A stretch of 64,000 nt of DNA. It comes from a bacterium (lineage in GTDB: Bacteria > RBG-13-61-14 > DATKZS01). The notes below the pieces were generated by a model, which saw nothing but the letters and a program-made list of their open reading frames with translations, made no database searches and was not told the DNA's origin. Numbering within the stretch: the stretch's first letter is position 1; every line of letters starts with the position of its first letter. The stretch is from contig CAXXFL010000006.1 in assembly GCA_963674965.2 (NCBI GenBank), positions 928,001 to 992,000 of the forward strand. The letters are read 5' to 3'. A program made the position numbers and the translations under genes. This document shows positions 20,024-59,668 of this stretch, one piece after another.

Positions 20024-23000
20024 TTATTTCGCCTCGGCGGACTCGCCGGTGTTCGAAGACACCCGGTTGCGGTAAGCCGCCATGAACCCGGCCTTGAGCT
20101 TGTCCTCAAGCGTCTCCTTTTTGTCATCCACGTCCTTGGGCCGCACCCCGGCGTCACTGCGCATGGGAGGTTCCTGGTCGGATTTCTCGGCCCTGGATTT
20201 TTCCTTGTCGGCGGGAGGGTCTTCCTTCTTTTCGGTCTTTGCCTCGGCCCGACCCTTGATCATCCGCTCGTAGGCGGCCTCGGTCGCGGCAAAAGCGTCG
20301 TCGGTCATTTCCGCCAGACGTTTGAACTCGGCTTCGCGGTCCTCGTCGCTGTCGAAGGCGAGTCCCTGCTTTTCCAGCTTGCGGACGAGTTTCTGCGCCC
20401 GCGAACGGTTGGCCGCCGCCTGCTGTTCAGCCTCGAGTTCCTCGACCCGTTTCTGGAGAGAGGCAACCTGCTTCTTCAGTTCGCCGTTCTCCTTTTCCAA
20501 TTCCTTGATTCGGGTCTTGTCGTCGGTGGAGCCGCCACCTCCGCCCTCGTCCTGTTCTTCTTCCTTGCCTTTGGCGGCCTCGGCCCGCTCGTCTTTCTGC
20601 TTTTCCTTCTCGTCCATGGATGGACCTCCTTTTTCATGGTTTTCGGTTTCCGCGTCGTCAATATCCGCTACCTGGGTTATCCGCGCGTTCTCGTCCGCTC
20701 CCTTCCGGTCAAGAAGGCCCAGCCCGGTAAAAGTCACCCCATGCAGAATTTCGTACACGGGCTTTCCCTGGAATGAGCCTCCCTTGTTCTTCCGCAAATG
20801 AATGCAGTAGTCGGTCTTGTTCCTGACCTTCTTCCCGCACACCGAGCACTCGCCCTCCTCGTAATCGCACTCCATCGATACCTGGGTGATGATCCCGCGC
20901 TTCATCAGCTTGTAGGCCAGCTGGGCGTTCTGGCTGTCACCGGTATAAAGCTCTCCCACGCATTCGACCCGTCCGCCGTTCTCGTCCTCGATGAAGTCCG
21001 CGCCCACGATGCCGCCCACTATGTCGGTGAAGTCCTGCGAGTGCTTCAGGTCGATCTTCTTGTTGATAGCAGTCATGTATCTGGTGGAAAGCTCTTCCGG
21101 AGTGAAGTGGTCGCCGTTCTTGTTGGTCCCGGCCCGGCACAGCACGAAGGTGAATTGGGGGTCTCCGACGTGGTTGCCCATGTCGAGGGCCTCGGTGAAT
21201 AGTTCCTCAGACTCCATGATCTCGATATCGACCGGGACCGTTGTGTGGCAGGCTGCGGCGGACAGCGCCCCCTTGGAACGGGGCGCGCTCCTGGCCTTCG
21301 AGGCCACGAACAACAACTCCTTGGCGTGCTTGCCTTCCCGGCCTATGTCCTTGGCGATGTTATAGTCGACTTCCAGGCCGCTGACCTTGACCTGCCCGAA
21401 ATGATTGCCGAAGATTTCCTTGATCTCGTCCTCGCGGGGGAAGGCCCGGTCCCGGTAGGAGAGGAGAACTGCCCCGTACTTGCCCCGGGCGTCCGATGCC
21501 ATGGTCGTCATCAGTTCCCTGATCGACTCCTTGGTGTACTTCGTCCGGGAAGGGAAACTGCGCCTTGGGTTCGAGCCGATCTTCTTATCGGCCCAGCGGG
21601 TCATCAGCCCCTCCACGAAATGAAGGGAATCCTCGTAATCGTTCGACCCGAACTCCGTGACATAAGGCGGGTCCAGGTAAAGCACGTCCGCGCTGTAGCG
21701 CCTTACCGCCTCCGACGCCTCAAGGTTCGTGGCCTTGCATTCCTCCCCGTTGTCGAACACCAGGTTGTTGAGTTGATTGACCGAACGCCTGAAGGACTCG
21801 ATAAATTTCTTGAGAGGAGGGTTGGAAAGCTGCGACTGCTCCAGGCTGGCCTCCGCTTCCAGGTCCGCTTTCCGCTGCATCTTCGAGCGAGAGAACTGGC
21901 CGAAGGCGCTCTTGGACTTGACCGTTGTCCCCAGCGCCGCCAGCGCCAGATCCTTCTTGTAACCGGAGAGCTTCTGGATGTTGGACCACACCTGGTCGAG
22001 CCACTGGAGCACTGGCCTGGTGTAGTAATAGCCGTAGAAATGGTCCGCGATGAACGTGCCCGCGCCCGGATTGGGGGCGAGAAGCATGTCGATGTCCTCG
22101 TCGGTAAGTTTTTCGCTCGAATTCTCGACAACCGCCCGGGCCAGGTGGTGAGGGTACCTCAAGAGGTCATTGGCCATGACCTTGTATCCCTTTCGCTTCA
22201 GGTTGTAGGCCACGTTGGCCCCGCCCGAAAAAGCGTCAAGCACCGTCTTCGTGCCTTTGGGTATGTGGCTGTCGATCCAGCCCATCATGAGGTACTTGCT
22301 GCCCATGAAACCGGTGACCCGCACTGGGCCGCTTTTCCCGGCCACGCAACTTAAAAGGTCCACGGCGTCATCGAGAGGAGCATCGGCCAGAGCCCGCATG
22401 TTCTCCTCGATTCGCAAGGCCGCCTCGGCCGCCTGCTCGGACTCGTGCTTATCGATCCATTCCCTGGCCTTCTCCTTGCTCCAGCCGTCCGGAGTGTCAT
22501 CGGTCTTTCTGGCGAAACGATAGGCCTGGAGCACCATGCACTTGGGGTCGTGGCCTTCCTGGACGTGTTCTTTCTTAAGCCTCCCGACAATGATCGTGAC
22601 TCCATCCACTCCCTCGAGCGGCTTGGTTCGGAAGCTGTCCTTCTCGAACTGCTCGGGATCGCGCACCCGGTACCGGATCTCATTGTCGGTCTCGTCCCAG
22701 ATGGCCTCGGTATCGAGTTCGCCCTCTGCCCTGTCCTCCAGTGATGCCGCTGCTTTCTGGTCGGCCTTGCCCCGCTTGCAGATGAACAGCCGCTCCTTGG
22801 CGTGGGAGGCGTCACCGTGACGCGAGGTAATCGAGTAATGGTGATCATGCGAGCGCATGGTCGAGTCGTGCCCAAAGGAACTGATGATCCGCTTCATGTC
22901 CTTTTCGTTCGGGTAGGCGTGGTCCCGGTAGGAAATGAGCCAGTGAGGTATGTGCTTGGCCGCGCCCAGGAAGCCCTCGAAAAACTTGTTGGCGTTGGCC

Positions 23001-23899
23001 TTGGTCACGGTTATGTGGTCGGTCTCGTAATGTTTGGTCTTCGAGTCATCCTTGATCGTGAGCCCTTCCCAGTAGGTCATTAGGCCCTCGATAAAGTGAT
23101 AGGACTTTTCGTAGTTCGTGGTCGAAAACTCGGTGGCGTAAGGAGGGTCGAAGTAGACAAGGTCGACCTTCACTCCTGGGAGCAGTTCGTTAACATCCTT
23201 CCGGAATGCCTTGCAGTCCTTGCCGTTGTCGAAAACAAGAGCGTTGATCCGGGCTGCGTTCTTTTTGAAACGCTCCTTGAACTCGTCCGGCGAGTCTTCC
23301 CGCTTGCCGTACCGGGTCGAGGACGAGAAATGCCCGAACCCGCCCTTTCCGGACATGCAGGTTTTGCCCAGGGCGAAGAGCGCTATGTCCTTCTTGTAGC
23401 CGTCCAGCTTGTCGATATTGGCCCTGATGGTGTCGATCAGTCCGTGGACCCCGTTGGCGAAGAAGATTCCCTTGAACTTGTCCCGAACAAAAGTCTCGGC
23501 CTTGGGGTTGTCCGAAAGGAGCATCTCCAGGTCCTCGTCGGAGAGCCGGACCTTCTTGTTCTCGATAATCGCCCGCGCCGCATGGAAGCAGTAGCGCAGC
23601 CGGTCGTTGGAGATTACCCGAAGTCCCTTGGTCTTGTACATATAGGCCACCACCGCCGAGCCGGAGAAAGCGTCCAACGCCGACTCCACGCCCTCCGGTG
23701 TATGCTTCCAGATCCAGTCCACCAGCTTTTGCTTGGAGCCGATGTAGTTGGTGATGTACTTGGGACGCTTGCCCGGGGGAAGTTCGTCTTGAGAAACTTC
23801 CCTGGCCTGGGCCTCGAGTGCTTCGAAGTCCAGGTTTAGTGCCGCGTCGGTCTCCAGCAGGAAGGCCAACCGTTCGAAATCAGTGGCAAAAATTTCCAT
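20024..23899 (-). CDS. Fusion of two D12-class DNA adenine methyltransferase domains, putative prohead protease and C-terminal scaffold
   Basis: MTase 1: YIGSK, DAFSGS, YFDPPY. MTase 2: FMGSK, DAFSGG, YLDPPY. Then TNKNGDHF...VSMECDYEEGECSVCG...CIHL...GLLDRKGAD and an acidic/basic coiled coil. Confidence 0.85.
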   Translation of the reverse strand: MEIFATDFERLAFLLETDAALNLDFEALEAQAREVSQDELPPGKRPKYITNYIGSKQKLVDWIWKHTPEGVESALDAFSGSAVVAYMYKTKGLRVISNDRLRYCFHAARAIIENKKVRLSDEDLEMLLSDNPKAETFVRDKFKGIFFANGVHGLIDTIRANIDKLDGYKKDIALFALGKTCMSGKGGFGHFSSSTRYGKREDSPDEFKERFKKNAARINALVFDNGKDCKAFRKDVNELLPGVKVDLVYFDPPYATEFSTTNYEKSYHFIEGLMTYWEGLTIKDDSKTKHYETDHITVTKANANKFFEGFLGAAKHIPHWLISYRDHAYPNEKDMKRIISSFGHDSTMRSHDHHYSITSRHGDASHAKERLFICKRGKADQKAAASLEDRAEGELDTEAIWDETDNEIRYRVRDPEQFEKDSFRTKPLEGVDGVTIIVGRLKKEHVQEGHDPKCMVLQAYRFARKTDDTPDGWSKEKAREWIDKHESEQAAEAALRIEENMRALADAPLDDAVDLLSCVAGKSGPVRVTGFMGSKYLMMGWIDSHIPKGTKTVLDAFSGGANVAYNLKRKGYKVMANDLLRYPHHLARAVVENSSEKLTDEDIDMLLAPNPGAGTFIADHFYGYYYTRPVLQWLDQVWSNIQKLSGYKKDLALAALGTTVKSKSAFGQFSRSKMQRKADLEAEASLEQSQLSNPPLKKFIESFRRSVNQLNNLVFDNGEECKATNLEASEAVRRYSADVLYLDPPYVTEFGSNDYEDSLHFVEGLMTRWADKKIGSNPRRSFPSRTKYTKESIRELMTTMASDARGKYGAVLLSYRDRAFPREDEIKEIFGNHFGQVKVSGLEVDYNIAKDIGREGKHAKELLFVASKARSAPRSKGALSAAACHTTVPVDIEIMESEELFTEALDMGNHVGDPQFTFVLCRAGTNKNGDHFTPEELSTRYMTAINKKIDLKHSQDFTDIVGGIVGADFIEDENGGRVECVGELYTGDSQNAQLAYKLMKRGIITQVSMECDYEEGECSVCGKKVRNKTDYCIHLRKNKGGSFQGKPVYEILHGVTFTGLGLLDRKGADENARITQVADIDDAETENHEKGGPSMDEKEKQKDERAEAAKGKEEEQDEGGGGGSTDDKTRIKELEKENGELKKQVASLQKRVEELEAEQQAAANRSRAQKLVRKLEKQGLAFDSDEDREAEFKRLAEMTDDAFAATEAAYERMIKGRAEAKTEKKEDPPADKEKSRAEKSDQEPPMRSDAGVRPKDVDDKKETLEDKLKAGFMAAYRNRVSSNTGESAEAK

Positions 23900-23972
23900 T
23901 CAGTTCTCCGGTAGCGGGCTTCTCACAAGTCCTGCCTGTAAAATTTGCGTGGGCTTGAATGAAGCTCCTATA

Positions 23973-24004
23973 GGTTACATACCGGAAACGAACTAAAAGT
24001 GTCG
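23973..24004 (-). promoter_or_regulatory. Phage bipartite motif copy 2
   Basis: CGACACTTT-N13-GTATGTA upstream of the capsid/tail operon. Confidence 0.75.
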
Positions 24005-24022
24005 GAAAAAAGTTGAAGAAAA

Positions 24023-24086
24023 ATGAAAAAACGACCCCCTCGCCACGTTCGGCAAAAAGCCTACTTGCCGCGAGGGGGTCTTTCAT
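24023..24086 (-). terminator. Probable terminator of the DGR transcript
   Basis: 11-bp inverted repeat GACCCCCTCGC (24033-24043) / GCGAGGGGGTC (24070-24080), followed by T-runs on the minus strand. Confidence 0.6.
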
Positions 24087-24198
24087 ATTCGGCCCGGCAA
24101 AATACCGGCCCGGGAAGGGGGCCAGGACTGATGGGGCTCGCTCCCCGGGAAATACTCCCGAGGACTCCGGCCATGCCTCCACGTCTCCGTGAAGGAAC

Positions 24199-24324
24199 TC
24201 AGTCCCCAGCACAACGGAATCCTATGTTGTTGTTCTGGTTAGTAGGCGTATTGTTGTTCCGGTTTGCTACGCGCAGGTTGTTCGTATTGTTGTTCCAATT
24301 GCCGCCGCGCAAAACGCGATACGT
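24199..24324 (-). repeat. DGR template repeat (TR)
   Basis: 126-bp ungapped match to 25825..25950; AAC-rich, reads [39 protein letters not shown]. Confidence 0.97.
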
Positions 24325-25400
24325 TATCGGCCACCCTCCCCAATCACGAATACAAACGATGGCAGCATTTGCGCTCTGAGTTTGTAGCTGTCGGCATAGG
24401 ACGCGTGAGACAGCCATGAAGTAACCGAGGCACCGATCTCCGAAAGCGCGACCTCGCCTCTCGAATATTCATCCTGCAACCGCCTCATCCTGGCCTTGAA
24501 GCGTCTGACGTTTTCCTTGCGCACCTTGGTCATGTGCGGCAGGTGCCTGAACCCGAGGAACTCCACTCCCTCCTTCACCGTGTATATCCTGCTCTTACCG
24601 TCATGGATTGAAAGTCGAAGCCCGGCCAGGTAATCGACCACCGCGGACCTGATCTCGTTCAGCCGATTCTTGTCGTCGCCGAAGATGCAAAAGTCGTCCA
24701 CATAGCGGACATACGGCCCGGCCCTGAGCTCCTCCTTAACCCAGTGGTCGAAGTCATTTAGGTAAAGGTTGGCGAAGAACTGGCTGGTCAGGTTGCCCAC
24801 CGGGATGCCGCGTCTCCTTTCATGCGGCGTGAACAGGCCGTCGCCGGGGTAGTAAATGATCGGCCCCTTGTCATTGAAACAGCGCGAGCCGATGATCTCG
24901 GAAAGCAGCCACATCGCGTCCCGGTCCGCGATCCTGCGCGAAAGTTTCCCGATCAGTATCTCGTGGTCAATGCTCTGGAAATATTTGCGGATGTCGCACT
25001 TGAGCACATACTTGTGGCGCTTGAGGAACTCCCGGAATCGCATGAGCGCTGCATGCGTGCCCTTGCCCTTTCTGCAGGCATAGCTGTCGGGGATGAAGCT
25101 TTTATCGAACAGCGGTTCGATAATATTGGTCACCGCGTGATGGACCACCCGGTCGCGATAGGGCGCGGCAGAAATCAGCCGCTTCTTTGCGTCCTTGACA
25201 ATGAAGTCGTGGTACGGGCCGTGATGATAGATTTTATGTAGCAGTTCGTCATGAAGCCGAAACAGGTTCCTCTCCAGGTCCATGTTGAAAATGAGCGTGC
25301 TCTCCCGGTAGCGCTTGCCATTCTGTGCTTTTTTGGAAGCCAGCAAGAGGTTCTGAAAACTCGCGATCTCGGGGAAGATGTTTTTGAAAGTCTTGGCCAA
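24324..25400 (-). CDS. DGR reverse transcriptase
   Basis: [27 protein letters not shown] (DGR-type SQ motif) and YVRYVDDF; 358 aa with no maturase or endonuclease domain. Confidence 0.96.
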
Positions 25401-25409
25401 TACTCCGCC

Positions 25410-25754
25410 TCACGTCTTCTTTGCCGCCTGCTTGCGCCAGCCGCCCACCTGGCTGCCAAGCTCGGTAATCATCTTCATCACGTGCTCGTAGCCCTTGTTG
25501 GAAAGAGCACCAAGGTCACGGCTAAGGCGAAGAAGAAAGCGAAGACGCTCCAGCCGTCGATTTGCTTCATCAAGCAGGTGTACTTTATCACGACGATATG
25601 ATGCCTCTGTTAAAATCTCAAGAATCGAAAGGCAATTGTCCACGATCCTCTCTCCGAGCGAATACTTAAGATCTTTTGGAAACTTTGAAACCCTTGGCAA
25701 AACCTCTTTGCACAGATCATACGCCTTTTGAACAGCGGGAAGTTCTTTCTTCAT
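25410..25754 (-). CDS. avd: DGR accessory variability determinant (Avd, four-helix bundle)
   Basis: FPKDLKYSLGERI and ELGSQVGGW motifs; basic 114-aa protein between target and RT. Confidence 0.92.
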   Translation of the reverse strand: MKKELPAVQKAYDLCKEVLPRVSKFPKDLKYSLGERIVDNCLSILEILTEASYRRDKVHLLDEANRRLERLRFLLRLSRDLGALSNKGYEHVMKMITELGSQVGGWRKQAAKKT

Positions 25755-25766
25755 TTTTAAAAATTT

Positions 25767-25794
25767 TTTAATGGGGGCTTACGCCCCCATTAAA
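25767..25794 (-). promoter_or_regulatory. DGR target-recognition hairpin downstream of VR
   Basis: Perfect 12-bp stem TTTAATGGGGGC/GCCCCCATTAAA with a 4-nt loop (GTAA on the minus strand), 30 nt after the target stop codon. Confidence 0.8.
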
Positions 25795-25824
25795 GTGTAA
25801 GAGTTAAAAAGGACAAAAGAGTAA

Positions 25825-25950
25825 TCAGTCCCCAGCACAACGGAAGCCTATGAAGACGCTCTGGGCAGTAGGCGAAAGGTTGTACCGGTTCGCCACGCGC
25901 AGGGTGCCCGAAGTGATGTGCCAACCCCCGCCGCGCAAAACGCGATACGT
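25825..25950 (-). repeat. DGR variable repeat (VR)
   Basis: Differs from TR at 24 of 126 positions, 23 of them TR adenines; encodes [39 protein letters not shown]. Confidence 0.97.
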
Positions 25951-27138
25951 ACCTGACGCGGGACCGGGAGGATCGTTGGTGGGACTTGTACTGTAGTAAT
26001 CGCTCTGATACCAGTCGTTGACCCATTCATAAACATTACCCCCCACATCATAAAGACCGTAACCATTAGCAGGATAGCTTTCAACCTCGCTGGTATCTCC
26101 AATACACCAATCGTAATTTGCGTCAACACATGCTGTAGCTGTATCTCCCCAGGGATAGCGTTTGCCGGACAGGCCGCCACGGGCAGCGTACTCCCACTCG
26201 GCCTCGGTGGGCAGTCTCTTGCCCGCCCAGGCGCAATAGGCCGTGGCCTGATTCCAGTCAACCCAGATAACAGGAAAATTGTCATAGGTCGGATTACCGT
26301 AATAAGAGCCGCGAGAATAACTTGAAGAATAGCCGGGCGCCGTGCATCCCCCTCCGCTCACGCAAGCCGCGTACTCCGAGTTGGTCACCTCATGAACGTC
26401 CATGTAGAAGTCCGAGGTGATGCAAACGTTATGCACCGGAAGTTCATCGCTGCTTCCCTCGCTGAACGCGTCGCCCATGTTGAAACAGCCGGAGGGGATA
26501 AGGGCCATTGGGCCGACAGTGCTTCCTCCCTGGCAGTCAGGGTCATCACCGTCGATCTTGCCGTCGCAGTCATTATCGAAACCGTCGTCACAGACTTCGG
26601 CCGCGCCGGGGTTTATGGAGGCGTCGACATCGTTGCAATCCGTGGTGGCCGTGGCCCCGTCAACGACCTTTGAGTAACCGTCCCCGTCGTAATCGCTCTT
26701 ATTGTAAAAGGCCGTAAGCCAGCCTCCTTCTACCTTCAAGGCATAAGGCACGCTGGCGATCCTGGACCGGGGCGACATCTCGCCATCGCTTTCAACCTCG
26801 ACTCCCATCCACACGTCCTGGTGGTTCTGGAAGACAGCGGAGAGGCTTGGCTCGGTACCCGGCGTTACCGTGCCCGAGCCGATGAGAACATTATAAAGCC
26901 CGCCGGTGACCGCCACGTCCTCCTGGAGAACGGTCAGATAAGCGGTCCCGCCCGTTTCAACACCATAAAACGCGAACGTCAGATCAACGGTAGACCCGTC
27001 CGCAAGAGGCTGGCCTGCAGAGTTCGTGAGCCGCCCCTGGTAATTGATAAGCTGCGGAGCGGACTGCGCCCAGGCAATGCCCACCACCACGGCCATAACA
27101 AAAACACCAACCAACGCCATTCCAATCTTAGCCCTCAT
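25825..27138 (-). CDS. DGR target: secreted protein with C-terminal FGE-sulfatase (CLec-fold) domain
   Basis: Signal peptide ending AWA-Q; INYQGRL domain; Cys/Asp motif DCNDVDASINPGAAEVCDDGFDNDCDG; FGE motifs HEVTN, RLPTEAEWEYAARGG, NGYGLYDVGGNVYEW and GFRC. Confidence 0.93.
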   Translation of the reverse strand: MRAKIGMALVGVFVMAVVVGIAWAQSAPQLINYQGRLTNSAGQPLADGSTVDLTFAFYGVETGGTAYLTVLQEDVAVTGGLYNVLIGSGTVTPGTEPSLSAVFQNHQDVWMGVEVESDGEMSPRSRIASVPYALKVEGGWLTAFYNKSDYDGDGYSKVVDGATATTDCNDVDASINPGAAEVCDDGFDNDCDGKIDGDDPDCQGGSTVGPMALIPSGCFNMGDAFSEGSSDELPVHNVCITSDFYMDVHEVTNSEYAACVSGGGCTAPGYSSSYSRGSYYGNPTYDNFPVIWVDWNQATAYCAWAGKRLPTEAEWEYAARGGLSGKRYPWGDTATACVDANYDWCIGDTSEVESYPANGYGLYDVGGNVYEWVNDWYQSDYYSTSPTNDPPGPASGTYRVLRGGGWHITSGTLRVANRYNLSPTAQSVFIGFRCAGD

Positions 27139-27203
27139 GACTTAATCCCCCTTCTTCGAGATTTATAGACAATTATCCATATGTTACCATGCTGTAAATT
27201 ACA

Positions 27204-27231
27204 ATACTATCCCCCCCCCCCCGATTGTCAA
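27204..27231 (-). promoter_or_regulatory. Sigma70-type promoter of the DGR target with a G12 tract in the spacer
   Basis: Minus strand reads TTGACA-atc-G12-a-TAGTAT (16-nt spacer). Confidence 0.75.
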
Positions 27232-27241
27232 CCTCCGATTA

Positions 27242-27571
27242 TTAAAATAGTGATCGCAGCTTAGCGGCGGCAAAAGCTTCCGCGGATGCTAATTCTTCGA
27301 TCTCGACAATTGGCCCTCGCATGCCTTTATAGGGTGATAGGGTTTTCTGGTGGTACGCCAGGAAATCCTCGGGAAGCGATTTGACTCCAGCTTCCACAAG
27401 CCGGTTGATGACCCAGTCGGCCTCCTCCTGAGCTTCTTGGTTGCCGGGGAAGTACTTGATGACCAGGTCGAGTCCGGGGCCGGGCCCCTGGACCCAGACG
27501 CCGATTGGCTCGTAATGGGGATCGCGAATGCGGTCGCGGAGCGCGTACTCGATCATGTAGCGGAGCTTCAT
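27242..27571 (-). CDS. Hypothetical protein, candidate immunity/accessory gene of the MuF protein
   Basis: ATGA overlap with the upstream gene. Confidence 0.6.
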   Translation of the reverse strand: MKLRYMIEYALRDRIRDPHYEPIGVWVQGPGPGLDLVIKYFPGNQEAQEEADWVINRLVEAGVKSLPEDFLAYHQKTLSPYKGMRGPIVEIEELASAEAFAAAKLRSLF

Positions 27572-28038
27572 TCCCACTCCTCCGCGATCCGGATGTGTTC
27601 TTCAAGGATGCTCTGATCGGCGGTCTCAAACCTCTCCTTGTTCTCGGCCTTGTACTTTTGCCAGGCCTTCCAGTCTTCGACCATCCCCGGCTCCGAAACC
27701 TCCATGATCAATTCCACGTGGAAGCGCCGGTCCATGTCATCGAACAAATCAATCAGGTAGGTGTCGTCCTGATCCCAGCGCCGGACCTTGATGGTGTGCG
27801 AATACTGGAACCCTTGGTCGTAGCCAGCCATCTTGAAAAGGAGCCAGAAGTCCACGTGGGTCATTTCGCCCGAGGCGTTGAAAATCGGGGCCACGCGGGT
27901 GACCGTGTAGCTGTCAACCAGGCCCAGGCGGATCGACTCACTGCCGCGCTCCCGCATCTCGATCCACGATCCTTGCTGGTTGAACTCCGCGAACAGGGCC
28001 TGCAGTCGCTCTTTTTCCTTTTCGATAAACTCCTTCAT
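27568..28038 (-). CDS. Hypothetical acidic protein, candidate immunity gene of the MuF protein
   Basis: ATG 2 nt after the MuF stop; 156 aa starting MKEFIEKEK. Confidence 0.65.
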   Translation of the reverse strand: MKEFIEKEKERLQALFAEFNQQGSWIEMRERGSESIRLGLVDSYTVTRVAPIFNASGEMTHVDFWLLFKMAGYDQGFQYSHTIKVRRWDQDDTYLIDLFDDMDRRFHVELIMEVSEPGMVEDWKAWQKYKAENKERFETADQSILEEHIRIAEEWE

Positions 28039-28040
28039 GC

Positions 28041-31000
28041 TCACCTCGCAATCACAATATCCTCGACCTTGCGGCCGTCGGGAAGTTTCACGATACCCTT
28101 CTTGCGGAATGAATCCAGTATCTTTTTCCGCTCGTTCTGGCTCCCGACCACGATGACCTCGATGTTGTCCAAGAGCGTCACCGAATACTTGAATATGGTC
28201 TCGTTGCCGCTCTTCTTCGCGAACCTTTTCCACTCCTCGGGAGTGCTGCCGCGATGCCGCGTCACGTAGTCGTCCACCACTTTGCCGTAAGCGTCATGGT
28301 CGTAACTTATCGCGTCCATCCGGCGCAGGAGCCGCTTCTTGAAGTACAGCCCGGTTTCGCCCGGCCCTCTTTCCGGCACCTTCTTTATCCGCGTGAAAAA
28401 GTAGCTTGCTCCGCCGGTTCTCATGTCCTCTTCGGGCGACATTCCTCCCACCGGGACCCCGGCCCGCAGTTTCTCGACGGTGCTTACCGCCGCGCCGTTC
28501 TGCTCGATCACCTTGTCGAGGAATGAGGACACGCTCTCTCCATTGGTGAGGTGGTGATGGAGCGCATAGCCTTTCATCTGCTTCTCCAGGTCCTCGTCCG
28601 AGATATCGAACCGGTATTGATGCCTGTAACCGGCGCTTTTGCCGGGCTGCTTGAACGCCAACTGGTGCTCGCCGATGGGATCATAACCCGGCATGCGAGT
28701 CAGGTCTTTCACGCCCAGGCGTTTTTCCCAGAACGACCGCATCTCCCGGACACGGACTTCCTTGCTCGCGGACCGCCGATCAAGGTCGGCGACTATCTTC
28801 TTGTATGCCGCGTCCTTGTCTACCTTGGACAGATAAGCCTGCTTGTGAAGGTAGAGCAGTTCGGCGTCCTCGGCGGTAGCCGGGGTGGAGTTGAGTCCAA
28901 GGCTCTCCATGTGCTCCATCGCCCGCTCCATGCTCTTCGCGTCCGGGCGATCCGGCAGAACTATCTCGAACTCGCCCCGCTGGGCATAGAGGTTCTTCTC
29001 CGACCAGGGGCGGTACACGGCCTTTATGCCGTCGCCGAAGTCAACTTCGTACTGCTCGCCAGCCTTCATGCTGTGGCCCTTGAACATGGCGGAATTGTCC
29101 GAGTTCTCGTTCACCACCACCAGGTCGCCCTTCTTCAGTTCGCGTTTCTCGTGCAGGACCTTCGAGCGAGTAACCTTGAAACCCGCGTCCTTGGCCTTAG
29201 CCGGGCGAGGCGATTCGTGCTTCTTGGTATAGGCACCGAACATTTCATTTATCGGCTTCTTGGCCCGCTCGGCATCCTCGATCTTGGAGAGCCAGGCCAG
29301 GTACTCGTTGGCCATGCCCCGAACGTCTGGGTCGCTCGACTGGGCCAGCTTCTGGAGCGCCTTTTCGTAGCCCTTGGCCTTGTTCAGCTTGTCCTGGTTG
29401 TACTTCTTGTCGTCTTTGTGGTGGTTGATGGTCTTGGCGGCGGCCAGGATGTCATCGGCGAACCGGTCCTCGGGCAAGGTGTCGCCGACCTTGGTCGAGG
29501 CGGGATCAATCCCGGCCTTCTTGAGCGCCTCCAGGATTTTCGCGTCGGCCTCGGGCCGGACCTTCATTTTGACCACGGTCCGCTCCTTGCCCTTGGCTTT
29601 TTCAACGAAAATGAGAGCGTTCTGGTCCTCGATGTCATCTTCGTCAATGGGAAGCGCTTTTCCCTGCCAACCAAGGCGCCTTACTTCCTCGATTAATTTT
29701 TCATCCTCCGGACCGAGGCGTCCCTTTTTGGCGATAGGTTCAGCCGCGTCCTCGAAACGGAACCCCTTTTTGCCAAGGACGTCTGAGTAGAAAGATTCGA
29801 AGTCGCGACGAAGGTTGCGCTTTCGATCCAGGGCCGTCTCGTAAAAAGCCTTCTTTTTCGCTTCGTCCTTCCCGAACCGGCCCTCGACGTATGGGCGCAG
29901 CATATCCAGATAGTCGTCATCCGATATTTTTTCGACTTCGCGGATGTACTTCAGCGTGACGGAGGGGTCGGGTTTAACCTTGCCTTGCTTGGCCGCCCTG
30001 AAGACCGCGTTGTAAAAAGGCTCCTGCTCGCCGAACTTCTGGTTCGGGTGATAGTCGATGGAAAGCTTGTCCTCGCCCAGGTGCTTGAGCAACTGCCCTT
30101 TGTCGATGCCGTAAATCTTGCCGCTCCTGGAGCGGAGGAACTGCTTGGAGTGGCCGTCGTGATTAGAGATGAGCCAGTCGATCACGTGCTCGCGCTGGAT
30201 CTGTTCAAGCTCAAGGGTGGTGAGGTCGGTGGGGTCCATGCCCGAGAAGTCGATCTTGGACTGAAGGTCGGTGCGCCATTTCTGGATCGAGCCGAGCTTT
30301 CCCTTGAGTCGAATGGTACGGACTTCGATGGCGTCAGGATCGATCATCCGGGCGATTTTGTAAGCGGCCTCCTCGCCGTAAGCGATGAACTCGTCGCCTG
30401 ACTTCTCGACCGGTTTGAACATCCACTTGTCGCCGTTCTCGTCGGTCCAGAATTCCTTGCTGTGAGCGCCTCCCACCTGGGCTTTCCCGGCGGGCTTGAA
30501 CTTGCCCGCTTTCCTTTTTGCCTCCCAGGCCTTGTCCGCATCCTCGAATTCCGATCCCTTCTTGGTGAAGGTCGGCTTTGCCACTGGTTCAGGCTCGGGC
30601 GGAGGCGGGGCTTTTACCTCGGGTTTCGGTTTCGATGCTTTCTTCTTGCCGCCGTGTTTCTCGGCCCAGGCGGCATGCTTTTCCTCGATGGCTGCCTTGG
30701 CCGCTTCGACCTTCTTTGGATCGGTCTCGCTGAACAGGGTGACCAGTTCATCCTTGTTCGCCCACTGCCAGTGCTTGAGCTTGGTGTCCTTGGCCAGGGT
30801 CTTGAGGTCGCCCACCTTCATGCCCGCCAGTTGCTCCTGAAACACCTTCTTCTTGAGCGCCAGTTCCTTGGCATGTGATTCAAGCATCTCCTGCGGCAAA
30901 ACACCGCCTTCTTCGAGCGCGGTTTCTGCATCCTTAACCGCCGCCAGGAAGTCTTCGTATTGGGTGGGCGACTTGGGCAGCACAACCTTGGCAGATGACT

Positions 31001-32612
31001 CTTCCACGCTCTCCTTGGCTTTTTTGATCTTCTCCTTGGCGGCGGTCTCGACCGCCTCCTTCTTTGCTTTCTCGGCAAGTTCCTGGCCGGCGGATTTCTC
31101 GATGGCCTTGGCGAGTTGCTCCTTGTTCTTGAGCGGCCCGATGTGATGCTTTTTCTTGGCCGCCATGAGGTCTTTTCCCTGAAGGCCCGAGTGGTCGATG
31201 CCAGGCTCCAGTTCATCCAGGAGATCGATCACGTCCTGCTTGGTCATATTGAGGGAGATGCCCTTTTCCTTCGCCATCTCCTTTAGCTCCGCCGCCGATA
31301 AACCCTGCAGTCCCTTTGGATCGGGAATCTTCTTCAACTGTTCGGCAACCTGCTGGGCCTGCTTGAGCGCAGATTGTTTCTCGGCCAGGAGCTTGACCAG
31401 TTCTTCCTTGGTTCTTAGAAGCCCTATCTTGTGCTGCTTCAGCTTTGCTTTGAGCGCCTGGCCTGACAGGTCCGAGTGGTCGATGCCGGGTTCTGCCTGA
31501 TCCAGTAGCTTGATAAAGTCGGATTTGGTGCGGGCTATGGAAACGCCGTTCTGTTTGCTAAGGGCCTGCAACTGCTTTGAGGTAAGGGCTTCCAGATCGC
31601 CGATCCCTCCCTTTTCGAATGCGGCCTTCAGCTTGGCGTCCTCGGTTGCTTTGGCCTTGGCTTGTCCCTCGATGGCTTGTGGCGGGAGGATGCAGGCGGA
31701 AGGTTCATCGGCCGCCACCGCGCCCAACTCTCCACCGCAGATTTTTAAAGGCCAGGCCGGGAGGTTGCTGCAGCGACAATTGGGGTGAGCGGGTTGCTGT
31801 GGGAAGCGGTCGATGTCATAAGTCTTGCCGTCGAGTGGACCGCACACAGGACATACCCGCTCGTCCTCCATGGTCATCCATTCGAGCTTTCGAACGCCAA
31901 CGTGCTTATGGAACTTGATCCTCCCCTGGTTGTGAGCTCGCAGTACTTCGGTCCGGGCTATGACCTCCATCCGGTATTGGGCCTTGCTGAACACCTTCGA
32001 GCCTGCGTGTCTGAAAGATTCCGGGTCCTTCACTACGTGGCCCAGGTCGCGAACAATGTCTTCCACGCCCTTGCCCGTGGCGATCCCCGAGAACACCACC
32101 CGCTTGATCCCGTCCGCGAGCTCCCGGTTTACGTCCCCAGCCAGGATCAGGTTGTAATTGGTCATGAAGTCGAGCGCGTCGGTGTCGACCAGGGTGAAGA
32201 CTTTGGTTGAGAGCTTATCTATGCCGTCGGGCTTGAGGTCTCGGTAGAAGGGCAGTTGGGCCGAGGCGAATTCATCGATGCCCTGGTAGATGCCCTGACG
32301 GAAGGACGCCTTGGCCGCTTTCTTGAACCGAAGGGTCTGCTCCTTGCGAAGCGTGGCGGTGATCGACTGGAGATCGGCTTCGAGTTTCTTGAGGCCCTCT
32401 ACAGCCGCGAGCTTGTTGTCGGGAAGAGATCCGAGCGTCTTATAGTGGAGAATGACCTTTCGGACCTCAGCCTCGGCGTCGGCCAGAGTTTCAGTAAGAT
32501 CAGCGGCCACCTGTTCGGAGTAGAGGTTCCTGTGCTTGACGCTCCGCTCCGTGGCCTGGCGGATGGCTTCGGCTTGTGAAAGTGATGTGCTCGCGGCCAG
32601 GGATGAGAGCAT
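28041..32612 (-). CDS. MuF (SPP1 gp7-like) head morphogenesis protein with HeH-like repeats, HipA/PI3K-like kinase domain and C-terminal extension
   Basis: IARTEVLRAHNQG, DERVCPVCGPLDG and PAHPNCRC (MuF); WMFKP, GEEAAYKIA, DWLISNHDGH and IYGIDKG (kinase); directly after the portal gene. Confidence 0.88.
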   Translation of the reverse strand: MLSSLAASTSLSQAEAIRQATERSVKHRNLYSEQVAADLTETLADAEAEVRKVILHYKTLGSLPDNKLAAVEGLKKLEADLQSITATLRKEQTLRFKKAAKASFRQGIYQGIDEFASAQLPFYRDLKPDGIDKLSTKVFTLVDTDALDFMTNYNLILAGDVNRELADGIKRVVFSGIATGKGVEDIVRDLGHVVKDPESFRHAGSKVFSKAQYRMEVIARTEVLRAHNQGRIKFHKHVGVRKLEWMTMEDERVCPVCGPLDGKTYDIDRFPQQPAHPNCRCSNLPAWPLKICGGELGAVAADEPSACILPPQAIEGQAKAKATEDAKLKAAFEKGGIGDLEALTSKQLQALSKQNGVSIARTKSDFIKLLDQAEPGIDHSDLSGQALKAKLKQHKIGLLRTKEELVKLLAEKQSALKQAQQVAEQLKKIPDPKGLQGLSAAELKEMAKEKGISLNMTKQDVIDLLDELEPGIDHSGLQGKDLMAAKKKHHIGPLKNKEQLAKAIEKSAGQELAEKAKKEAVETAAKEKIKKAKESVEESSAKVVLPKSPTQYEDFLAAVKDAETALEEGGVLPQEMLESHAKELALKKKVFQEQLAGMKVGDLKTLAKDTKLKHWQWANKDELVTLFSETDPKKVEAAKAAIEEKHAAWAEKHGGKKKASKPKPEVKAPPPPEPEPVAKPTFTKKGSEFEDADKAWEAKRKAGKFKPAGKAQVGGAHSKEFWTDENGDKWMFKPVEKSGDEFIAYGEEAAYKIARMIDPDAIEVRTIRLKGKLGSIQKWRTDLQSKIDFSGMDPTDLTTLELEQIQREHVIDWLISNHDGHSKQFLRSRSGKIYGIDKGQLLKHLGEDKLSIDYHPNQKFGEQEPFYNAVFRAAKQGKVKPDPSVTLKYIREVEKISDDDYLDMLRPYVEGRFGKDEAKKKAFYETALDRKRNLRRDFESFYSDVLGKKGFRFEDAAEPIAKKGRLGPEDEKLIEEVRRLGWQGKALPIDEDDIEDQNALIFVEKAKGKERTVVKMKVRPEADAKILEALKKAGIDPASTKVGDTLPEDRFADDILAAAKTINHHKDDKKYNQDKLNKAKGYEKALQKLAQSSDPDVRGMANEYLAWLSKIEDAERAKKPINEMFGAYTKKHESPRPAKAKDAGFKVTRSKVLHEKRELKKGDLVVVNENSDNSAMFKGHSMKAGEQYEVDFGDGIKAVYRPWSEKNLYAQRGEFEIVLPDRPDAKSMERAMEHMESLGLNSTPATAEDAELLYLHKQAYLSKVDKDAAYKKIVADLDRRSASKEVRVREMRSFWEKRLGVKDLTRMPGYDPIGEHQLAFKQPGKSAGYRHQYRFDISDEDLEKQMKGYALHHHLTNGESVSSFLDKVIEQNGAAVSTVEKLRAGVPVGGMSPEEDMRTGGASYFFTRIKKVPERGPGETGLYFKKRLLRRMDAISYDHDAYGKVVDDYVTRHRGSTPEEWKRFAKKSGNETIFKYSVTLLDNIEVIVVGSQNERKKILDSFRKKGIVKLPDGRKVEDIVIAR

Positions 32613-58863: not shown

Positions 58864-59668
58864 TTTCAACTTAAATCATCAAATATAAGGCCAAGTGGAA
58901 ATTTCCAGCCCCCCCTCCCCCCCGGATTGCATAGCCGCGCGGAAAAATGAGCTTGATTAAAAGAGATGAATTCGATGGTTGTTGACCGGCCATGAATTGT
59001 TATATTATACTTTTTTATTAGCACCTTACACTTCAGCAGCATGATGACCGCCTCTTTTTACCGTTCATGGAATTAGTCCTATTTTTAGCGGCCAATATCA
59101 TTGGTTAAAAATTATTTTCGCCTTAATTGCTTATTTTATATTCGATTGATAGAGGGTAATGTTTTAAAAAGGCATTTTCTTAGCCATATGTATCCGATTA
59201 AATTGATAATTTTTTCCAATAGCCCAGTTGGCGACCATTCAAGTAACGTTTTACGGCAACAATCCCGATTGACATTACCTTTTTACATTTTACGTATAAA
59301 TGGCTGTAATATAAGCATTTTATCCTAACTATTCAAACCACCGCCTCCAAATTCCGGTAATTTCGTAATGTATCGATATCTTCGGAGCTATTTAACGCCA
59401 TCTGAAATATCGGGTGGCCTTTCAGTTTTTATACCTTTAAATACCGGGCATTGCCTGATAATAAAATAATGCAATTCCTCTATTGGCATTAATATTGCTT
59501 TACAGGTTGGCGGCAGTTGCAATTATAACAATCCTTCATAAATATTCGGGCTTTAACGTTTTCGCGGGTTGCAAGATATAAAGTAATTTTATCGAATTCA
59601 ACGAATTCAGCATATAGAGTGGTCAATATTATACAAGATTGGAAAAAAGACGGGTGGAAGGTAACAAA

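Follow-up and report, generated by a model that had tools for sequence, protein, structure and literature searches.

A poly-G tract in the promoter spacer of a prophage DGR and of its paralogous targets: a candidate slippage-driven expression switch

Introduction

What does a run of twelve G's do between the -35 and -10 hexamers of a promoter whose gene is already subject to DGR hypermutation? The question is raised by a stretch of 64,000 nt, G000:C6:928001-992000 (hereafter the window), of a bacterial genome of 6.5 Mb. The first-pass annotation, made from the letters of the window, took the tract for a possible phase-variation element, by which one slippage event could switch both the display of the variable protein and the machinery that mutates it. 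Here we describe the promoter and its cassette, follow both through the rest of the genome, through relatives and through metagenome and viral contigs, and weigh what the tract may be doing.

Results

Anatomy of the promoter

On the minus strand positions 27231..27204 read TTGACA-ATC-G12-A-TAGTAT with a spacer of 16 nt, which confirms the sequence given in the first-pass annotation together with its distance from the target: the leader of 65 nt (27203..27139) is followed directly by the ATG at 27138 (Table 1). Four promoter-like sites are found by a consensus scan of 23500-28500, against 2.3 +/- 1.4 in shuffles, and TTGACA/TAGTAT is the top-scoring one with 10 of 12 consensus positions. The tRNA-Asn promoter in the window is TTGACA-16 nt-TATAAT. 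Hence the host uses the same consensus, and the equality of the two spacers, pointed out at first reading, holds.

The -10 region allows more than one register. TAGTAT matches the -10 consensus at 4 of 6 positions, and three candidates, TAGTAT, TATTGT and TGTAAT, overlap at 3-nt steps. With TGTAAT as the -10 the G9 and G5AG3 copies of the promoter, described below, would get 17-nt spacers; this hexamer is without the key A at the second position. Because of the overlapping hexamers and the 4/6 match, the spacer length and the on/off state of each copy are uncertain.

The leader holds two ATTGT motifs, separated by about 40 nt, and a near-palindrome, TGTAATTTACA (27139-27203). They may be the site of a regulator, in which case control would not be confined to the G-run. 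Rfam gives no family for the leader over 23800-27600; the single match there, flavi_FSE, is below threshold (24 bits vs the gathering score of 43) and is taken as chance.

Formation of a G-quadruplex by the G12 was considered and set aside by reasoning, since a three-layer quadruplex needs more G's than the twelve available. On the minus strand a G7-A-G7 stretch (58909-58923) precedes the -35 of the tRNA-Asn promoter by about 50 nt, near the integrase end of the prophage.

Table 1. Coordinates of the promoter, the DGR cassette, the variable repeats and the promoter module copies. Positions without a contig prefix are those of the window; module copies are placed by their start codons, and their spacers are measured to the first -10-like hexamer.
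Feature	Position	Strand	Details
-35 hexamer TTGACA	27226..27231	-	consensus scan and copies of the module elsewhere
Spacer ATC	27225..27223	-	sequence
G12 homopolymer	27211..27222	-	C12 on plus; 12 of 16 spacer bases
Spacer A between G12 and -10	27210	-	
-10-like hexamer TAGTAT	27204..27209	-	consensus scan
Overlapping -10-like hexamer TATTGT	27206..27201	-	
Overlapping -10-like hexamer TGTAAT	27203..27198	-	
Conserved 65-nt leader with ribosome-binding site GAAGGGGGA	27139..27203	-	alignment A1 of module copies
DGR target gene, 437 aa	25825..27138	-	signal peptide, MopE-like Cys motif, FGE-sulfatase/C-type-lectin domain; Pfam PF03781 6.8e-60, PF11617 4.4e-11
Variable repeat (VR), 3' end of target (cognate)	25825..25950	-	126 nt, 81% identical to TR; 23/24 differences at TR adenines
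12-bp hairpin, GTAA loop, just after VR	25767..25794	-	
avd, 114 aa	25410..25754	-	Pfam bAvd 1.7e-19
DGR reverse transcriptase (RT), 358 aa as listed	24324..25400	-	Pfam RVT_1 3.7e-27
Template repeat (TR)	24199..24324	-	126 nt, 41 adenines
Terminator-like hairpins 3' of TR	24125..24105 and 24059..24036	-	
VR	C6:1175939		25/25 differences at TR adenines
VR	C2:337210		23/23 differences at TR adenines
VR	C2:268625		22/29 differences at TR adenines
VR	C2:335772		24/34 differences at TR adenines
VR	C2:270611		26/35 differences at TR adenines
VR	C7:109317		31/40 differences at TR adenines
VR	C4:80531		21/40 differences at TR adenines, weak case
Module, window copy			TTGACA-atc-G12-a-TAGTAT, spacer 16
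Module	C6:1174751		TTGACA-tccca-G14-TAGTAT, spacer 19
Module	C2:271787		TTGACA-tc-G9-TAGTAT, spacer 11
Module	C2:269819		TTGACG-atcgagat-G8-TGGTAT, spacer 16
Module	C4:79326		TTGACA-tccgaa-G7CG3-TAGTAT, spacer 17
Module	C7:110511		TTGACA-ttcga-G5AG3-TATTGT, spacer 14, TAG lost

Rarity and reality of the tract

The G12 is the longest homopolymer in the window, as the first reading had it; after it come A/T runs of at most 8 nt and G/C runs of at most 7 nt. In the 6.5 Mb of the genome there are 342 G/C runs of 7 nt, 105 of 8, 24 of 9, one of 10, two of 11, two of 12, one of 14 and one of 16 nt. Runs of at least 12 nt are thus seen four times, and extrapolation of the run-length decay gives well under one.

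Long G/C runs of this genome are concentrated in promoter spacers. Three of the seven runs of at least 10 nt lie between TTGAC[AG] (at most 15 nt upstream) and TAnnnT (0-2 nt downstream); among runs of 5-9 nt the same setting is found once in 12,585, at the G9 paralogue of the target. The remaining four runs of at least 10 nt look intergenic and stand outside promoter spacers. The longest G/C run in the genome, at C5:167900-167915 (L024:1401-1416), belongs to the promoter TTGACA-aagc-G16-TAATAT, which is unrelated to the target family and is situated about 275 nt before an ORF of 279 aa with the lipoprotein signal MAKKYFFLQLIVFTLLALGC. Pfam has no match to this ORF, and orthologues of the locus are absent from the 12 relatives searched.

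The doubt, already voiced in the first-pass annotation, that the tract could be a sequencing artefact was answered with Logan contigs. The C12 is bridged without gaps by X1 record 8 and X2 record 16, covering 27180-28200; X1 and X2 are runs of a single sample, which is probably the source, and their contigs were built separately per run. Among the six public runs listed for the window these two alone contain at least half of its sampled words, and no RNA run containing it was among those listed. No other tract length at 27211-27222 is present among the Logan contigs of that sample, in which rare variants are dropped. The contigs break at 27180 because of a 35-nt stretch shared with paralogues, and the joint over the VR that 'skips 85' is caused by the 94%-identical paralogue. 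Over the VR itself the contigs mix with those of this paralogue, and VR variants are not assignable to either of the two.

An intact DGR inside a prophage

The locus is an intact DGR, comprising an RT, Avd, a TR/VR pair with adenine-biased differences and a target of C-type-lectin fold. The gene order is target-avd-RT-TR, with all four intact and on the minus strand; annotation and repeat search agree here with the co-orientation and close spacing noticed earlier. The N-terminus of the target is MRAKIGMALVGVFVMAVVVGIAWA/QS. The RT carries the motifs YVDD and SQFFANLYL. The avd of the cassette is the sole bAvd match in the genome and the RT is the sole full-length RVT_1 match, two other RVT_1 matches being partial.

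Hairpins behind the VR serve target recognition in DGRs. The hairpin found here recurs in identical form and at equal distance behind five of the eight VRs of the genome (see below). Because it is shared in this way, we suggest that it is probably a DGR recognition element rather than a strong terminator. No promoter-like site was found by the consensus scan between the VR and avd, hence avd and the RT probably need read-through. The DGR transcription unit may end at the hairpins of 24036..24125.

A myovirus-like prophage surrounds the DGR. Toward high coordinates it has the portal, a MuF-like head protein of 1523 aa, terminase, primase, helicase and a serine integrase adjoining tRNA-Asn, and toward low coordinates a DNA methyltransferase of 1291 aa, the major head protein, sheath and tape measure. 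The MuF-like head gene and two small upstream ORFs have the same orientation as the cassette. The stop codon of the upstream ORF is placed 10 nt before the -35, with no terminator predicted between them. During lytic growth, structural transcription from upstream could bypass the tract whatever its length.

Two of the neighboring genes are large. The MuF-like head protein (28041-32612) matches PHROG 6577 at 1.6e-214 and is followed by small ORFs without a family match (27242-28233). The methyltransferase (20024-23899), between the DGR and the major head gene, has a D12-class N6-adenine domain and a large PHROG 27806 region.

A promoter module on paralogous targets

The window promoter is one member of a promoter family on remote DGR targets, which was overlooked at first reading. 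Nine full-length paralogues of the target, with identities of 58-100%, are found in the genome by tblastn with the target protein. A module formed by the -35, the G-rich spacer, the -10 block, the 65-nt leader and the signal peptide precedes six of the nine, the window copy included (Table 1); the five promoters outside the window are placed at C6:1174665, C2:271856, C2:269892, C4:79230-79263 and C7:110573-110600. Two paralogues without a G-run have TTGACA-13-TAGTAT and TTGACA-16-TAATAT, and one full-length paralogue retains the 3' half of the leader only. In the alignment the six copies are homologous from about -35 to -50 onward, with unrelated sequence before it. The leader blocks TATTGTA and TGGTAAC are invariant, TATTGTA being fixed in an alignment of 7 copies. 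Origin of the paralogues by mRNA retroposition was rejected, as the homology includes the -35 and the -10.

The module is also found beyond this genome. A relative of the same family, G002, has TTGACA-ttc-G9-TAGTAT, TTGACA-ttt-G6-CATTGT and a third copy with G9 and no -35; downstream of the G6 copy (L113) there is no clear gene. The metagenome contig L021 carries TTGACA-tctga-G7-TAATAT before a homologous gene. Tract length differs between these copies too. The -35 is TTGACA or TTGACG in all six copies of the genome itself and in three outside it (two in G002 and one on the metagenome contig). A search with the module pattern gave 7 sites in 2 of 15 genomes, and the reversed control pattern gave none.

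Scans with the leader pattern returned two loci in metagenome contigs, one of them the true homologue on L021 and the other, L020, apparently chance; two in genome contigs, the known one of G002 and a Bacteroidales match taken as chance; and none in viral contigs. The target protein likewise found no locus in viral contigs. With the RT, 80 viral loci of at most 41% identity were found, whose 636 kb contain two G/C runs of at least 8 nt, neither with TTGACA in the adjacent 30 nt. With no such tract in these 80 distant phage DGR loci, the G-tract is not a general DGR feature.

Across the homologous copies the G counts are 5, 6, 7, 7, 8, 9, 9, 12 and 14 between conserved flanks, in a comparison made among paralogues or other species and not among strains of one lineage. 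The distance from the -35 to the invariant TATTGT block varies from 9 to 22 nt, a 13-nt range that comes mostly through the G-run. The most recently diverged pair, with 94% protein identity, differs by two G's; at loci outside the window the tract lengths are those of the assembly alone. Hence the G12 is a real promoter-spacer homopolymer, the length of which changes over evolution. We note that the paralogues share ancestry and are therefore not independent evidence, and that the non-G part of the spacer varies between copies as well, so that not all of the length change is slippage.

One TR and its remote targets

In a BLAST search the TR matches eight VR-like copies; all of them lie at the 3' ends of FGE-sulfatase genes, seven outside the prophage. 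This is a multi-target DGR that has two remote VRs with adenine-only differences, outside any other DGR. The gene with the VR at C2:337210 has 75% protein identity to the cognate target over the lectin domain, and its VR equals the TR at all 85 non-A positions, which fits recent homing from this TR or from an identical one. The neighbors of the remote targets are ordinary chromosomal genes, coding for MnmA, Fic, an ECF sigma factor and a cNMP/PilZ protein. A G-run promoter is absent from the two VR-bearing genes of lipoprotein type in the tandem cluster C2:335647-338425; the other six of the eight have the G-rich module.

Traces of the history of these loci are visible in their flanks. Remnants of avd, matched over 52 and 24 residues, lie behind two remote targets, at C6:1176135-1176290 and C2:335505-335576, respectively. 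Two histories would account for them: duplication of a unit that reached from the promoter into the beginning of avd, or the former presence of full DGR cassettes at these loci. In the C4 paralogue (C4:80573-80656, L030) the 3' flank matches the sequence downstream of the TR and not that of the VRs. The TR may be derived from the 3' end of a C4-like paralogue, as it is suggested by this flank.

In the part of the survey of Wu et al. (2018, PMC5758913) that is considered here, remote targets (>100 kb) are not expected for phage-associated DGRs, and with a single exception the DGRs that have such targets are non-phage. The present system differs from them in that the only complete DGR of the genome is in a prophage; with its remote VRs, it is hence unusual against this expectation.

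Discussion

Proposed mechanism

With moderate confidence we suggest that the G-run in the promoter spacer acts as a slippage-driven expression switch atop DGR hypermutation, which explains the sequence evidence best. In this mechanism a promoter of the sigma-70 type, TTGACA/TAGTAT, would drive the secreted target of C-type-lectin fold in a self-contained prophage cassette. The promoter, the G-run and the 65-nt leader form a module common to paralogous targets, several of which are remote targets of the same TR. As a G-run this long slips during replication, the spacing of the -35 and the -10 would drift and the strength of the promoter would shift with it, in a heritable and reversible manner and for each paralogue on its own. 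The window copy, at 16 nt, is probably on or partly on, and one or two more G's would bring its spacer to 17-18 nt. Transcription past the post-VR hairpin would also provide avd, RT and TR, and the tract may in this way modulate mutagenesis in the lysogen, where these three elements probably depend on read-through from the G12 promoter. Use of the promoter, slippage on the time scale of a population, its effect on expression and co-transcription of the cassette are what we infer.

The phase variation proposed in the first-pass annotation is thereby sustained as far as the spacer position of the tract, the conserved hexamers and the variable length among homologues suggest it, these lengths being compared across paralogues and species. 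Its further proposal, a single slippage event that switches display and mutagenesis together, is consistent with the co-orientation of the genes; it is weakened by the 12-bp hairpin between target and avd and by the possible lytic read-through.

A constitutive promoter is expected to hold its spacing. The spread of spacings among the copies fits a contingency locus, the copies of which are in different states, and also fits a set of silent, decaying copies. Several spacers, of 11, 12 and 19 nt, are far from 17, and the copies that have them may be silent or decayed rather than switching. MutS and MutL are present in the genome, hence slippage is not boosted by a repair defect.

Alternative explanations

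The conserved 65-nt leader with its TATTGTA and TGGTAAC blocks suggests additional control, and the alternative that it favors accepts the promoter as real and takes the G-run for slowly drifting filler. A regulator that acts on the leader or the TTGACA box would then control expression, and the tract lengths would mark old divergence with no phase variation in ecological time. The interrupted tracts (G7CG3 and G5AG3) and the spacers of 11-12 nt in copies with degenerate VRs, which have 9-19 non-A differences, point in the same direction, as does the presence of MutS and MutL. However, the pure runs G12, G14 and G16 are many-fold above the run-length decay and all three stand in promoter spacers, an excess that is hard to explain without selection for slippage, or generation by slippage, at this place. 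Moreover, copies with 94% identity are already two G's apart. We therefore consider drifting filler rather unlikely.

That TTGACA/TAGTAT is not a working promoter at all would require the cassette to be transcribed from the prophage operon, or by means of another sigma factor or an activator, the G-run being a protein-binding or structural element or inert. Read-through from the prophage cannot explain the module at the remote chromosomal paralogues, which carry it in unrelated, non-phage surroundings; the -35 is kept as TTGACA or TTGACG in the module copies, and the independent G16 case has the same arrangement. We regard this possibility as quite improbable, even with the co-oriented genes upstream, the last stop codon so close to the -35 with no predicted terminator, and the weak 4/6 -10 in its favor. 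A precedent exists in the fim genes of Bordetella pertussis, where poly-C spaces an activator site, not a -35, from the -10. As for the length of the tract being wholly or partly an artefact of sequencing or assembly, homopolymers of 12 nt or more are error-prone on every platform and the paralogue lengths come from the assembly. Nevertheless, the C12 is recovered without a gap in contigs built separately from two runs, G-runs occupy the same place in other assemblies, and the long ORFs nearby, of 1523 and 1291 aa, are intact, which means that the assembly is not riddled with homopolymer errors; we hold an artefact to be very unlikely.

Building on the slippage-driven switch, we tentatively put forward a wider scheme, doubtful as it is at present, of two-tier bet-hedging. 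In this scheme the prophage DGR would rewrite in trans the binding tips of up to seven chromosomal paralogues, the members of the main family would each be gated by their own poly-G, and the tract of the prophage would serve as a master dial of hypermutation through read-through.

Relation to known systems

In Mycoplasma hyorhinis the vlp lipoproteins have poly-A in each promoter spacer, which results in combinatorial on/off expression. The present family is similar to vlp in that several paralogous surface proteins have their own promoter-spacer homopolymer each. However, the vlp runs are poly-A, the proteins vary by the number of coding repeats, and no retroelement is involved.

The DGR carried by Bordetella phage BPP-1, of the order mtd-avd-TR-brt, has a tail-fibre target and, in the accounts considered here, follows the phase variation of the host. 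With BPP-1 our system shares a phage-borne location, a target of C-type-lectin fold, avd, RT and TR, and a hairpin after the VR. Unlike in BPP-1, there are chromosomal paralogues of the target, which has a signal peptide, the order is target-avd-RT-TR, and a candidate phase-variable element is present in the promoter of the DGR itself.

The closest promoters are those of Neisseria meningitidis porA and Treponema pallidum tp0126, where, according to the sections of PMC7864442 and PMC3639595 used here, poly-G between the -35 and the -10 sets transcription via the spacer length with an optimum near 17 nt. The poly-G is placed in the same way here, in the -35/-10 spacer of a promoter of a secreted or surface protein gene. 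However, the present bacterium is uncultured and environmental, whereas those of porA and tp0126 are host-restricted pathogens; moreover, the gene is DGR-hypermutated, the window copy is in a prophage, and the arrangement is known from sequence alone. In the tpr family of T. pallidum (tprE, G, J, F, I, L) each paralogue has a promoter poly-G, the length of which varies within isolates and alters reporter output (sections of PMC7864442). The likeness is that of a paralogous surface-protein family with promoter poly-G of differing length, one for each member. In the same sections the tpr run is described as situated just upstream of the start site and as acting with a CRP-like regulator, and tprK as varying by gene conversion and not by a retroelement, both of which set tpr apart.

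On the side of the DGRs, Treponema denticola has, in the parts of PMC4891356 and PMC5758913 considered, a DGR with seven non-adjacent targets, in which one RT and TR serve dispersed FGE-sulfatase/C-type-lectin targets with adenine differences in the VRs. The organization described here, one RT and TR with dispersed targets of this domain, is the same.

The switch itself is of the classical kind. What would be new is a DGR target or cassette under a homopolymer promoter, and the statement of the first-pass annotation that no such DGR was known to it stands, as far as the accessible portion of the literature on DGRs with phase variation, homopolymers or slippage extends: no description was found there, and in two DGR papers phase variation is mentioned only as the host behavior that BPP-1 tracks. 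The word 'promoter' does not occur in any of four DGR papers, PMC5758913 and PMC4891356 among them, 'homopolymer' does not occur in PMC5758913, 'poly' does not occur in PMC4891356, and 'retroelement' does not occur in a 2025 review of phase variation. Contingency loci in phages are presented as new, in coding regions of T2 and T4, in the available part of a 2025 preprint (PMC12633550).

Implications

Little is known about the regulation of DGRs. A heritable stochastic switch on the promoters of the targets, and perhaps on the RT as well, would give diversity a second layer, since the choice of the displayed paralogue would vary in addition to what it binds. The biology of contingency loci would also be extended beyond host-restricted pathogens, to a bacterium that is uncultured and environmental and to its prophage. 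If the two-tier scheme is true, cells would vary both in the receptors that they display and in what each receptor binds, and the phage would bring a mutator to genes of the host. A prophage DGR with remote chromosomal targets is of interest independently of the G-run.
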